Shown here: in pieces, positions 1,428-3,092 of the stretch | Layout: each line of letters opens with the position of its first letter | Position numbering within the stretch: position 1 is the first letter of the stretch | IMG/VR virus record: IMGVR_UViG_3300046787_000206 | Span: 1 to 64,000 of that record | Strand: one strand, 5' to 3' | Length of the DNA: 64,000 nt | Origin: a virus | Notes under the pieces: model-generated | Seen by the model: only the letters and a program-made list of their open reading frames with translations | Told to the model about the DNA's origin: nothing | The model's database searches: none | Position numbers and translations under genes: made by a program

Positions 1428-1455
1428 TTGACAACATGTGGAAAGTTATTAAACT
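1428..1455 (+). promoter_or_regulatory. Sigma-A-like promoter of the ncRNA/tRNA island
   Basis: TTGACA (1428-1433), 16 nt spacer, TAAACT (1450-1455); predicted start about 1461. Confidence 0.6.
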
Positions 1456-1462
1456 TGATACC

Positions 1463-1545
1463 ACTACAGATGCGTCTTCTCCTTTCTGTCGTTTGTAGTT
1501 GTTTGGTGAACAGCGGCCCCAAGTCCCCCCTTCGCTTGGGGCCGT
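1463..1545 (+). ncRNA. Putative two-hairpin sRNA with pyrimidine/C-rich loops (6C-RNA-like)
   Basis: Stem ACTACAGATG/CGTTTGTAGT with loop containing CTCCTTTC; stem GCGGCCCCAAG/CTTGGGGCCGT with loop TCCCCCCTTCG; begins at the predicted TSS. Confidence 0.45.
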
Positions 1546-1554
1546 ATCACCTAA

Positions 1555-1634
1555 GGGCCTGAAATGGTGTCGATTGCTTCTCAAAGCCGCTAGTCGGAGG
1601 AAGTAAGACCACAGTTCGATTCTGTGCAGGTCCA
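1555..1634 (+). ncRNA. ssrA: Minimal tmRNA: tRNA-like domain only, no mRNA-like domain
   Basis: Acceptor GGGCCTG/CAGGTCC with G3.U70 and A discriminator; stemless D-loop AAATGGTGTCGA; helix 2 TTGCTTCT/GGAAGTAA; GAC linker; T-arm CACAG-TTCGATT-CTGTG. Confidence 0.8.
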
Positions 1635-1704
1635 CGATGGGAGAGGCAAGACAGAGGGCTCTGAATACAGGGCGTGGCTGTCCAACTCTCTCCTCATCAC
1701 CAAA

Positions 1705-1776
1705 TGCCCGCTGGCGCAATGGCAGCGCAAGAAGCTGTTAACTTCGAGGTTCCTGGTTCGAGTCCAGGGCGGGCAG
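1705..1776 (+). tRNA. tRNA-Asn(GTT), CCA not encoded
   Basis: Cloverleaf TGCCCGC/GCGGGCA, anticodon loop CTGTTAA, T-loop TTCGAGT. Confidence 0.92.
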
Positions 1777-1855
1777 CTATAGAAGTCCCCTTCTTCTATA
1801 CGGCTCGGTACTCATGCCGTCAAATGAGTATCCGTACCAGATGCGAGTTCTGGAA

Positions 1856-1935
1856 GAGTCGATGGTGTAACGGCAGCACATCTCCCACTGACGAGTGGAC
1901 AAAGAGAAGGTACGGGTTCAAATCCCACAGACTCA
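1856..1935 (+). pseudogene. Degenerate tRNA-like element with anticodon loop replaced by a hairpin
   Basis: GAGTC/GACTC acceptor, D-arm GTGT-AACGGCA-GCAC, T-loop GGG-TTCAAAT-CCC; TCTC/GAGA encloses CCACT-GACG-AGTGG instead of a 7-nt loop. Confidence 0.55.
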
Positions 1936-2090
1936 CTCAAAGGAATGCTCTGAACAAGTGTTCCTGCGATGTATCACTACTGAAACCTATCCCTGTGGAA
2001 GCATCATACGAAGGCGTTCAGGCTGATGGAGATTGCTCTGCGACCCCACTAGGTAGTGACAGCTGGCAGGCTTACCCGTGGCCAGCACAT

Positions 2091-2166
2091 GCCTCCTTAG
2101 CTCATCTGGTAGAGTGCCTCACTTGTAATGAGGATGTGGCGGGTTCAAGTCCTGCAGGAGGCTCCA
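2091..2166 (+). tRNA. tRNA-Thr(TGT)
   Basis: Cloverleaf GCCTCCT/AGGAGGC, anticodon loop CTTGTAA, encoded CCA. Confidence 0.95.
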
Positions 2167-2267
2167 GTCTGTCAATGGATAGCGTGACTGAACGTGTACT
2201 ACGGACCATTGGCCCTGAAGATGAGCAGGTTAGGGTAGCACCCTTACACAAAACAGCCTCATCACAT

Positions 2268-2342
2268 GTCGGAGTAGAGAAGTTCGGTTATCTCGCCAGC
2301 CTCATAAGCTGGAGCTCGCAGGTTCAAATCCTGCCTCCGCCT
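2268..2342 (+). tRNA. tRNA-Met(CAT), U2.C71 mismatch, CCA not encoded
   Basis: Anticodon arm CCAGC-CTCATAA-GCTGG, T-arm GCAGG-TTCAAAT-CCTGC; Met vs Ile2 not resolved. Confidence 0.88.
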
Positions 2343-2583
2343 CGACTTACCCCTGCGGTTCGTAACTGTTCAGCACCTCGCAAGAGACTAAGTGGTAAGC
2401 AATGCCTGTAGGGCTGACTCTGGGATGAGTATGTCCAGGAGCGATTACAGGTAAAACTAGCTCCTCTTCATCTTTCGGGATTGATTAGGTTTAGTAGTAA
2501 CAACAGGTTAGACCTCGCTTCTGCAGAAGTAAGCTGACCTCCCGACAGTCGGGCGTGTGTAGACAACGATAGGTTCGCTCCAA

Positions 2584-2669
2584 GGAAGCACGCCGAAGTA
2601 GGAGAGTCGGGGCGGTCTGTAAAACCGTTGGGTGCACCTGAGTGGGTTCAAATCCCTCTGCTTCCACCA
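2584..2669 (+). tRNA. tRNA-Tyr(GTA), long variable arm
   Basis: GGAAGCA/TGCTTCC acceptor, GCGGT-CTGTAAA-ACCGT, encoded CCA. Confidence 0.92.
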
Positions 2670-2822
2670 ACAGCGGAACCCTTCGCACATCTAACCAGTG
2701 TGCCTACAGTTCTGCTGGGCCCACATCTGTTCGTACGGAGTGGTGCTCCCTTGGTCCTGCAGGACCTTGTCGGGGTGTGGGTTAGCCAGAGTAGCCGAGC
2801 ATTTGCCACGGGCTCTGGGTAT

Positions 2823-2896
2823 GTCGGTAAAGTGTTACGGTAGCACGGCGGTCTCCAACACCGCAAGCCCAGGTTCGACTCCTGGTACCCTCGCCA
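2823..2896 (+). tRNA. tRNA-Trp(CCA), two acceptor-stem mismatches
   Basis: GCGGT-CTCCAAC-ACCGC, CCAGG-TTCGACT-CCTGG, encoded CCA; acceptor GTCGGTA/TACCCTC. Confidence 0.85.
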
Positions 2897-2897
2897 A

Positions 2898-2972
2898 TCC
2901 CCATTCGTCTAATTGGCAAGACGCTAGTTTCTGGTGCTGGTTATCGAGGTTCGAGTCCTTGGTGGGGAGCCA
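2898..2972 (+). tRNA. tRNA-Gln(CTG)
   Basis: TCCCCAT/GTGGGGA acceptor, anticodon loop TTCTGGT, encoded CCA. Confidence 0.92.
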
Positions 2973-2975
2973 ACA

Positions 2976-3092
2976 CCCCAGAACCGTCCCTGTAATGCTT
3001 CAAAAGTATCAACTGAATGATACTTTTGAAGTATCGGTCAAACGGCTGGGGTTTTGCACCAGTACGATTGTTTAAGACGATAAACAATCGTA
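2976..3092 (+). repeat. Two long inverted repeats closing the RNA island
   Basis: ATGCTTCAAAAGTATCA/TGATACTTTTGAAGTAT inside CCCCAG...CTGGGG; TACGATTGTTTA/TAAACAATCGTA (3063-3092). Confidence 0.8.

Follow-up and report, generated by a model that had tools for sequence, protein, structure and literature searches.

The stretch analyzed here, referred to as the window, comprises the first 64 kb (64,000 nt) of IMG/VR virus record IMGVR_UViG_3300046787_000206, which is 94,962 nt long and is rated 99% complete. At positions 1461-3092 it contains an island with six tRNAs, detected by ARAGORN, which are the sole tRNAs of the genome. A preliminary description of this DNA had proposed that nearly every spacer between these tRNAs is a self-contained structured RNA module. 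Comparison with related viruses shows three non-tRNA elements with sequences conserved elsewhere: a tRNA-like domain (1553-1635), a structured RNA called module A (1937-2090) and module B (2346-2399). All features are listed in Table 1.

The island is a single tRNA operon of 1.6 kb, bracketed by a promoter and a terminator, without any credible open reading frame (ORF). As previously described, it is headed by a sigma-70-like site, and no second promoter-like site was found on the + strand within it. The six tRNAs occupy 460 of the 1632 nt (28%), consistent with the earlier figure of less than one third, and every stem pair listed at the time is present where it had been placed. Five of the tRNAs pass the gathering score of the Rfam tRNA model (RF00005, 29 bits); tRNA-Tyr was called by ARAGORN. 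The absence of a credible ORF was also confirmed, as no ORF led by a Shine-Dalgarno (SD) sequence and clear of tRNA overlap exists in the island. Two long frames were rejected as genes. The 245-aa frame at 1674-2411 (GTG start) matches no Pfam family and crosses tRNA-Asn, module A, tRNA-Thr and tRNA-Met; the homologous module A regions differ by indels of 1, 2 and 19 nt. This frame is spurious, though it could be annotated by a gene caller. The frame at 2698-3075 overlaps tRNAs and has no Pfam match either.

Table 1. Features of the tRNA island (window positions) and of comparable loci in other phages. z, folding stability relative to dinucleotide shuffles; MFE, minimum free energy.
Feature	Position (strand)	Evidence or remarks
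Sigma-70-like promoter	1428-1455 (+)	TTGACA-16-TAAACT, 10/12 matches
5' leader, two hairpins (1460-1501, 1505-1551)	1460-1552 (+)	MFE -40.5 kcal/mol; no homologue
tRNA-like domain, alanine-type, 83 nt	1553-1635 (+)	12-sequence MAFFT alignment; alignable to Streptomyces phage elements
Three-tier long hairpin between tRNA-like domain and tRNA-Asn	1639-1693 (+)	z -3.4; 0.4% of genome windows as stable
tRNA-Asn(GUU)	1705-1777 (+)	ARAGORN
Spacer, three small hairpins, lineage-specific	1778-1855 (+)	MFE; no homologue
Degenerate tRNA-like element, enlarged anticodon arm	1856-1935 (+)	Rfam tRNA 22.7 bits, cut-off 29; E 0.09
Module A, conserved structured RNA	1937-2090 (+)	Covariance model, compensatory changes
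Module A P0	1937-38/1968-69 (+)	
Module A P1	1942-49/1957-64 (+)	Loop CUGAACA, 1950-56
Module A P2	1974-80/2053-59 (+)	
Module A P3	1995-98/2046-49 (+)	
Module A core helices	2001-03/2034-36, 2009-10/2027-28, 2013-15/2022-24 (+)	Loop GUUCAG, 2016-21
Module A P5	2062-67/2081-86 (+)	
tRNA-Thr(UGU), CCA encoded	2091-2166 (+)	ARAGORN
Spacer, hairpins 2171-2215 and 2220-2263	2167-2267 (+)	z -1.3 and -2.0; 14-17% of genome windows as stable
tRNA-Met(CAU)	2268-2343 (+)	ARAGORN
Module B (probable)	2346-2399 (+)	Closing stem CUUACC/GGUAAG, inner hairpin, CUC-GCAA-GAG tetraloop hairpin
184-nt spacer including 2424-2472	2400-2583 (+)	2424-2472 equalled by 36% of genome windows; no conservation evidence
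tRNA-Tyr(GUA), long variable arm, CCA encoded	2584-2669 (+)	ARAGORN
Three adjoining stable hairpins between tRNA-Tyr and tRNA-Trp, lineage-specific	2671-2818 (+)	z -5.3 (2671-2717), -1.7 (2719-2783), -2.3 (2787-2818)
tRNA-Trp(CCA) and tRNA-Gln(CUG), 1 nt between	2823-2972 (+)	ARAGORN
Compound intrinsic terminator, long hairpin (2975-3052) then UUUU	2975-3056 (+)	2973-3092, z -8.5
81-nt element, LuckySocke	OR725497.1 17977-18057 (L133:1501-1581)	Unannotated gap between tRNA-Val and tRNA-Ser
81-nt element, BRock	KX925554.1 97140-97220	Rfam tmRNA
81-nt element, pSt2308	PV588686.1 33356-33436	Rfam tmRNA
Gap family beside tRNA-Trp, 138-164 nt	L122:7801-7964, L124:5367-5530, L115:5063-5200	
Gap family beside tRNA-Trp, 124-130 nt	L122:8037-8160, L124:5165-5294	

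When the island DNA was compared with 20 related virus records, spacers were matched as well as tRNAs. Window positions 1976-2082 matched record G011 with 84% identity, between a tRNA-Asn and a tRNA-Gln of that record, and scanning IMG/VR with the core pattern of module A brought up 11 more stretches. The alignment indicated that the stems at 1942-1964, 1974-2059 and 2062-2086 are real but do not form separate modules, as had been thought: they belong to one RNA extending from 1937 to 2090. This RNA has a P1 hairpin with an invariant loop (UCUGAACAA); P2 (TCACTAC/GTAGTGA, 7-9 bp) is its closing stem and P3 an inner helix. A block of 40 nt is the same in every member, and the P5 hairpin (2062-2086) has a variable apical insert.

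A covariance model (R1) built for module A gathers 12 loci with 11 distinct sequences, scoring 133-193 bits, with one copy per record and a length of 153-170 nt. The window copy scores 133 bits (E 9e-28), covers the full length of the model and has all the helices. On the model alignment, 98.7% of cells are paired, compared to 27-48% when the partners are slid by 1-3 columns. Double-sided changes were detected in 17 of the 35 pairs, distributed across P0, P1, P2, P3 and P5, and six pairs of P1 covary on a plain MAFFT alignment, which is not fitted to the model. Invariant and variable G.U pairs fix module A on the tRNA strand. The P1 loop CUGAAC (1950-1955) is the exact complement of the core hairpin loop GUUCAG (2016-2021), and both are invariant in all members. 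Such complementarity suggests a loop-loop contact, which could be intra- or intermolecular.

Module A had no match in Rfam 15, either at the gathering score or at E up to 10, when the window and two other module A loci were scanned. Nothing similar was found in 50,697 GenBank phage records (blastn, word 11), the exact core pattern gave 0 matches in GTDB species genomes, and the RNA is absent from the Streptomyces phages BRock, LuckySocke and pSt2308. Module A is an uncatalogued and well-supported RNA family. Within its invariant core, an AUG opens a frame of 7-8 codons (window 2026-2052), the first five of which (MEIAL) are identical in all members. This frame was rejected as a tag-like ORF: it has no SD, its end varies and it is probably a by-product of RNA conservation.

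The position of module A relative to tRNAs is very regular. In nine loci, the flanking tRNAs are 167-170 nt apart, and the model match leaves no more than about 1 nt of this gap uncovered. L104, L119 and the window have a shorter module A, of which 151-154 nt match; there, the gap is filled except for 1-2 nt. The 5' start is always CUCRRA, directly after the upstream discriminator, and the 3' end lies 3-5 nt past P5, where it meets the first base of the next tRNA. The identity of the flanking tRNAs varies, with Gly/Trp, Gly/Leu, Arg/Trp, Asp/Trp, Met/Ile, Asn/Met, Arg/Leu and Asn/Gln pairs. Since tRNA or tRNA-like borders directly flank module A in 12 of 12 loci, its release by tRNA processing enzymes would be a natural expectation. 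In the window and in L119, the upstream neighbor is not a true tRNA, yet an acceptor stem and a T-arm are retained. The window element at 1856-1935 was rejected as a tRNA on its sub-threshold Rfam score (Table 1), and in L119 a different acceptor-plus-T-arm element holds the same place. RNase P and RNase Z are able to use acceptor/T-arm minihelices, and on that ground we propose that 1856-1935 may be a retained 5' processing handle for module A.

Among the nine searched records that are at least 90% complete, two carry module A. It is also present in four further records (20-86% complete), in which no homologue of the window phage's terminase was found. With its exact fit in the gaps, its varying tRNA neighbors and this distribution, module A behaves as a cassette sitting between tRNAs in unrelated phages.

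The second conserved element lies at the 5' end of the operon. The preliminary description had mentioned a tag-less mini-tmRNA, with which 1553-1635 agrees, as the tRNA-like domain is kept and no tag frame is present. This element displays a 7-bp acceptor stem with a G3.U70 pair, a stemless D-loop-like strand, a T-arm, a discriminator A without CCA, and a short helix 2 capped by a 3-bp hairpin. Scanning IMG/VR with an exact anchor identified nine contigs, to which related records added more. The domain adjoins tRNAs in nearly all loci, usually at a distance of about 3 nt, with two loci having no tRNA nearby. Pairing reaches 99.6% of cells when 12 sequences are aligned by plain MAFFT, and 14 of the 20 pairs show double changes; the third acceptor pair is G.U in 12/12, and both the acceptor stem and the T-arm covary.

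Counterparts of this domain exist in cultured phages. BRock, LuckySocke and pSt2308 each have an unannotated 81-nt element; on the Rfam tmRNA model (RF00023, cut-off 47) these elements reach 57-64 bits, spanning model positions 1-374 with both ends present and the middle missing. They align with the window copy, which itself falls below the Rfam tmRNA threshold. ARAGORN detected no tmRNA in the 94,962-nt genome. By blastn against GenBank phages, the tRNA-like domain gave tRNA similarity only or no match, and its exact core pattern gave 0 matches in GTDB species genomes. Compared to tmRNA, 1553-1635 possesses the tRNA-like part (G3.U70 acceptor stem, discriminator A, stemless D-loop-like strand, T-arm and a stub of helix 2). 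In contrast, it lacks the mRNA-like part, with neither resume codon, tag reading frame nor pseudoknots; it is not permuted, and the phage genome encodes no SmpB. The strong support from compensatory changes identifies 1553-1635 as a conserved tag-less tRNA-like domain, for which the three Streptomyces phages offer a laboratory system.

Module B was recognized because window positions 2340-2399 are 92% identical over 60 nt to record G010, in a 720-nt region of that record without ORF or tRNA. The four differences between the two copies include one compensatory pair (C-G to A-U) and one G-C to G.U change. Past 2399 the sequences diverge, and the GCAA-tetraloop hairpin lies inside the conserved unit. 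The module formerly drawn at 2351-2413 was therefore correct as to the GCAA hairpin but not as to its closing stem (2351-58/2406-13), which is not kept in the sole homologue; the unit is 2346-2399. Scanning IMG/VR with the module B core returned G010 alone. This comparison is suggestive of a probable third conserved RNA element. In the G010 locus (L107:1260-1982, - strand), module B is accompanied by an orphan T-arm-like hairpin, GCTAAGTTCGATTCTTAGT, and by a strong terminator; the locus has no Rfam match, and this phage is complete and related to that of the window.

The folding stability of the modules in the preliminary description, whose boundaries had been picked by eye, was assayed against 300 dinucleotide shuffles and against same-length windows of the phage's own + strand (coarsely sampled). 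The shuffles clearly favored 1639-1693 (z -3.4) and 2671-2717 (z -5.3). They were marginal for 1942-1964, 2787-2818 (z -2.3) and 2220-2263 (z -2.0), and unfavorable for six modules, with z between +0.2 and -1.7. In the genome comparison, 1639-1693, 2062-2086, 2671-2717 and 2719-2783 belonged to the top 1% of windows, while 2171-2215, 2220-2263, 2351-2413, 2424-2472 and 1974-2059 were equalled by 13-46% of them. Thus, the anatomy and the stems described previously were borne out, and the tiling by hairpins exceeded chance only in part. However, folding energy cannot settle function either way, because the six true tRNAs themselves score only z -0.1 to -1.6. Indeed, 1974-2059, within the best-supported RNA, gave z +0.16, no better than shuffled sequence. 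To take shuffle-like folding as refutation, as had been suggested, would have been misleading, since the best-supported element folds like shuffled sequence: thermodynamic z-scores fail as a filter for functional RNA in the present case.

The other spacers were compared with those of related islands. There, tRNAs are 0-3 nt apart and the long gaps are discrete blocks of 124-186 nt; because relatives pack their tRNAs so tightly, long gaps can be read as discrete inserted cassettes. The hairpin at 1639-1693 is an insertion, as most relatives with the neighboring tRNA have about 3 nt between the tRNA-like domain and that tRNA. The 5' leader has a positional equivalent in L003, where an unrelated hairpin precedes the tRNA-like domain. 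The spacer at 2344-2583 as a whole folds with z +0.26. For the entire spacer between tRNA-Tyr and tRNA-Trp, z was -2.35; its hairpins rank in the top 0.8%, 0.7% and 1.7% of genome windows and start 1-2 nt past the tRNA-Tyr CCA. Beside tRNA-Trp, other phage arrays also show two recurrent families of non-tRNA gaps (Table 1), which may represent more cassette RNAs.

Homologues of these spacers were sought in several ways. For 1456-1552, 1636-1704, 1778-1855, 2167-2267, 2400-2583 and 2670-2822, a search of about 297 kb of related sequence, with E values up to 5 admitted, returned none, and the other seven or eight hairpins have none among about 35 related islands. The tRNA islands of BRock, LuckySocke and pSt2308 contain no homologue of these spacers and have tRNAs alone in common with the window, and blastn of the whole island against GenBank phages gave tRNA similarity only. 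An IMG/VR scan anchored on tRNA-Tyr gave 0 matches; when the loops of 2671-2717 alone served as the pattern, a single match appeared, but its N positions cannot pair with each other, so it is due to chance. Except for 1856-1935, no spacer matches the Rfam tRNA model at E up to 10. The structures at 1639-1693, 2171-2263, 2424-2472 and 2671-2818 are insertions specific to this lineage. They may be lineage-specific RNAs, processing or stability structures of the precursor, or decaying cassettes; we favor the last two readings over that of conserved RNA genes.

Altogether, comparative support upholds the view that the island holds self-contained structured non-tRNA RNAs on the tRNA strand, in the form of module A, the tRNA-like domain and probably module B. 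The stronger statement, that nearly every spacer is such a module, is supported for these three elements and not for the other seven or eight hairpins, which have no homologue among about 35 related islands and half of which are thermodynamically ordinary. What can be supported is therefore narrower and firmer than the initial proposal, and consists of one new RNA family, one tag-less domain and one probable third element.

Several known RNA systems resemble this arrangement. Nothing but tRNAs and noise came out of Rfam 15 scans of the window and of L104, L116, L119 and L107, whether thresholded at the gathering score or relaxed to E 10. RNAC and RNAD of phage T4 are small non-tRNA RNAs of unknown role encoded within the phage tRNA cluster and derived from the same transcripts (PMC3014915). 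Module A differs from them in size, in its three-domain fold, in phage lineage and in probable host phylum, and is set apart by sequence, with no match by blastn (word 11) in GenBank phages. GOLLD and ROOL (RF03087) are conserved, covariation-supported phage or prophage RNAs of unknown function, often found in or next to tRNA islands and possibly co-transcribed with the tRNAs (PMC12286853, PMC5737381). However, they form multimeric cages and measure 580 to more than 800 nt, compared to 153-170 nt for module A. Identity with them, judged by a match to the Rfam model and a size above 500 nt, was rejected, as the window and two module A loci gave no match at E up to 10.

Theta ribozymes, which are minimal HDV-like ribozymes, are also small structured RNAs placed directly beside phage tRNA genes (PMC10879173). 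They were sought as a nested double pseudoknot (P1-P2-P3-P1'-P4-P2') that begins at a cleavage site immediately 3' of a tRNA and has the catalytic C in J4/2. This topology is missing at the tRNA 3' borders of the island: the pattern matched 14 times in the island and 11-72 times in shuffles, so that the island count is below most of these, and no candidate starts at a tRNA 3' end. In module B, moreover, the 5'-most strand pairs with the 3'-most one. No Rfam ribozyme, HDV type included, matched at E up to 10. YrlA-type Y RNAs, which work with Ro60/Rsr (RF02553), are tRNA-mimicking small RNAs of actinobacteriophage tRNA regions. Unlike those of Y RNAs, the ends of module A do not pair with each other. 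A YrlA/Ro60 system is not supported here: the window has no RF02553 match, and a search for Ro60-like proteins (TROVE, PF05731) found none in the window's own genome (G000) nor in G010, G011, G025 and G026, which also carry module A or B; control genomes were positive. A gene for a Ro-like RNA-binding protein, gene 37, lies within the tRNA island of LuckySocke (L134:2166-3752). Module A thus shares its arrangement with T4 RNAC/RNAD, GOLLD/ROOL and theta ribozymes, but matches none of them by sequence or model.

We consider it fairly probable that the island is one tRNA operon carrying six tRNAs plus separate small-RNA genes built like tRNA cassettes. For module A, RNase P would cut the precursor at the 5' border of the downstream tRNA, and RNase Z or an equivalent would cut on the other side, past the discriminator of whichever tRNA or tRNA-like handle lies upstream (in the window, 1856-1935). 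These cuts would free a module A of about 154 nt, whose three helical domains may be locked by CUGAAC/GUUCAG loop pairing. Once free, module A could work in trans in the infected cell, where its likeliest role would be to tie up a protein or RNA of the host.

Several points weigh against this account. We infer the processing, the accumulation and the trans action of module A from its sequence and surroundings. Its pair counts come from a model-fitted alignment, which biases them; the slid controls and the MAFFT alignment of P1 mitigate this effect. The proposed loop-loop contact lacks covariation support because both loops are invariant. No protein family accompanies module A in all loci, and module B rests on two sequences. 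Finally, the nearest relatives of the window phage lie outside the set of islands compared, so the lack of homologues for the other hairpins may reflect the reach of the search.

It seems unlikely that almost all spacers are functional small RNAs, each self-contained, which would jointly act as a mixture of decoys, sponges or anti-defence RNAs. All the stems do exist, four more hairpins are as stable as the best 1-2% of genome windows (2671-2717 reaching z -5.3), and relatives show that long gaps are discrete insertions. Moreover, because each of the three elements open to comparative testing turned out to be real, thermodynamic ordinariness is no argument against the remaining spacers. On the other hand, these spacers have no homologue in the 35 or so related islands, in the Streptomyces phage islands or in directed IMG/VR scans, and five of the modules are equalled by 13-46% of ordinary windows. 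Relatives also work with a spacing of 0-3 nt, so spacers as such are dispensable. We regard as still less probable that the spacers are non-functional debris, such as decayed tRNA genes and recombination scars, with module A conserved through recent horizontal spread. Against it, five helices of module A and four of the tRNA-like domain carry compensatory changes; these demand selection for base pairing and so rule out pure debris for both elements, and no spacer except 1856-1935 matches the tRNA model even at E 10. That element is visibly a degenerate tRNA, however, most spacers were found in the window genome alone, and HNH/HTH homing-endonuclease-like genes recur near such arrays, all of which would fit with decay.

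A role in cis is also doubtful, to a degree similar to that of a function in nearly every spacer. Module A and the other hairpins would then serve the maturation of neighboring tRNAs as signals for processing or stability, whether as entry sites for nucleases, blocks to exonucleases or self-cleaving ribozymes, and would be functionless once freed. The direct contact of module A with tRNAs in every locus agrees with this, as do the stable hairpins beginning 1-2 nt past the tRNA-Tyr CCA and the precedent of theta ribozymes beside phage tRNAs (PMC10879173). Nevertheless, the majority of tRNAs in such arrays mature without a neighbor of this kind, and each genome with module A has a single copy, while a 40-nt invariant core with three covarying domains exceeds the needs of a nuclease site. 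A ribozyme or processing role in cis is further weakened by the ribozyme searches, with no Rfam ribozyme match at E up to 10 and no HDV-like nested topology starting from a tRNA 3' end.

Phage tRNA clusters are usually read only as supplies of tRNAs for codon usage or anti-defence. The operon of the window also carries discrete, covariation-supported non-tRNA RNAs which behave as mobile cassettes and which would be excised by the tRNA maturation machinery. The 40-nt core of module A is invariant across phage records sharing no detectable terminase, implying a strongly constrained interaction. We tentatively put forward, as a possibility held with less confidence than the cassette organization of the operon itself, that module A represents an undescribed class of trans-acting phage RNA. 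Such an RNA would be compact, locked by a loop-loop contact, matured by host tRNA enzymes and spread as a cassette between unrelated phages. It would do a specific job in infection, for example catalysis or the sequestration of a factor that the host uses in defence or translation. If this were true, module A, module B and the tag-less mini-tmRNA would together mark phage tRNA arrays as a general platform for launching accessory RNA genes.

The large genes of the window phage are all on the + strand, and terminase, portal and major head protein are recognizable in the genome. The major head protein, whose family covers at least 600 IMG/VR contigs, is about 60% identical to its counterparts in BRock, LuckySocke and pSt2308. 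The tRNA-Trp/tRNA-Gln pair of the window and that of mycobacteriophages D29/L5 share about 75% identity. Because of these two similarities, this uncultured phage is likely related to actinobacteriophages and likely infects an actinobacterial host. The genes neighboring the island have no match in GenBank phages, while the 124-aa protein encoded downstream has close homologues at 87-94% identity. The nearest relatives are known by a neighbor protein that is 93-94% identical; a metagenome scan for close relatives yielded only one, at 56%.

Several genes recur around such islands. The families found repeatedly near module A are HNH/HTH endonuclease-like proteins, 2OG-Fe oxygenases, Hsp20 and PNKP phosphatases. 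A PNKP phosphatase-domain gene (L122:5907-6374, - strand), with homologues in L117, L123 and L125, recurs near module A arrays and is reminiscent of tRNA repair, and Hsp20 genes flank the islands of L003, L107 and L115. A thioredoxin gene directly follows the tRNAs in L003 (5695-5998), and another is located within the LuckySocke tRNA island (L134, gene 56). Directly upstream of the island promoter, the window encodes a small GNAT acetyltransferase (1102-1422; Pfam E 5e-5), and in L005 a similar gene precedes the sole tRNA-Asn. Finally, beyond the window and near the right end of the genome, two stretches of 0.9-1.2 kb (91406-92620 and 93059-93952) contain no ORF of at least 80 codons.

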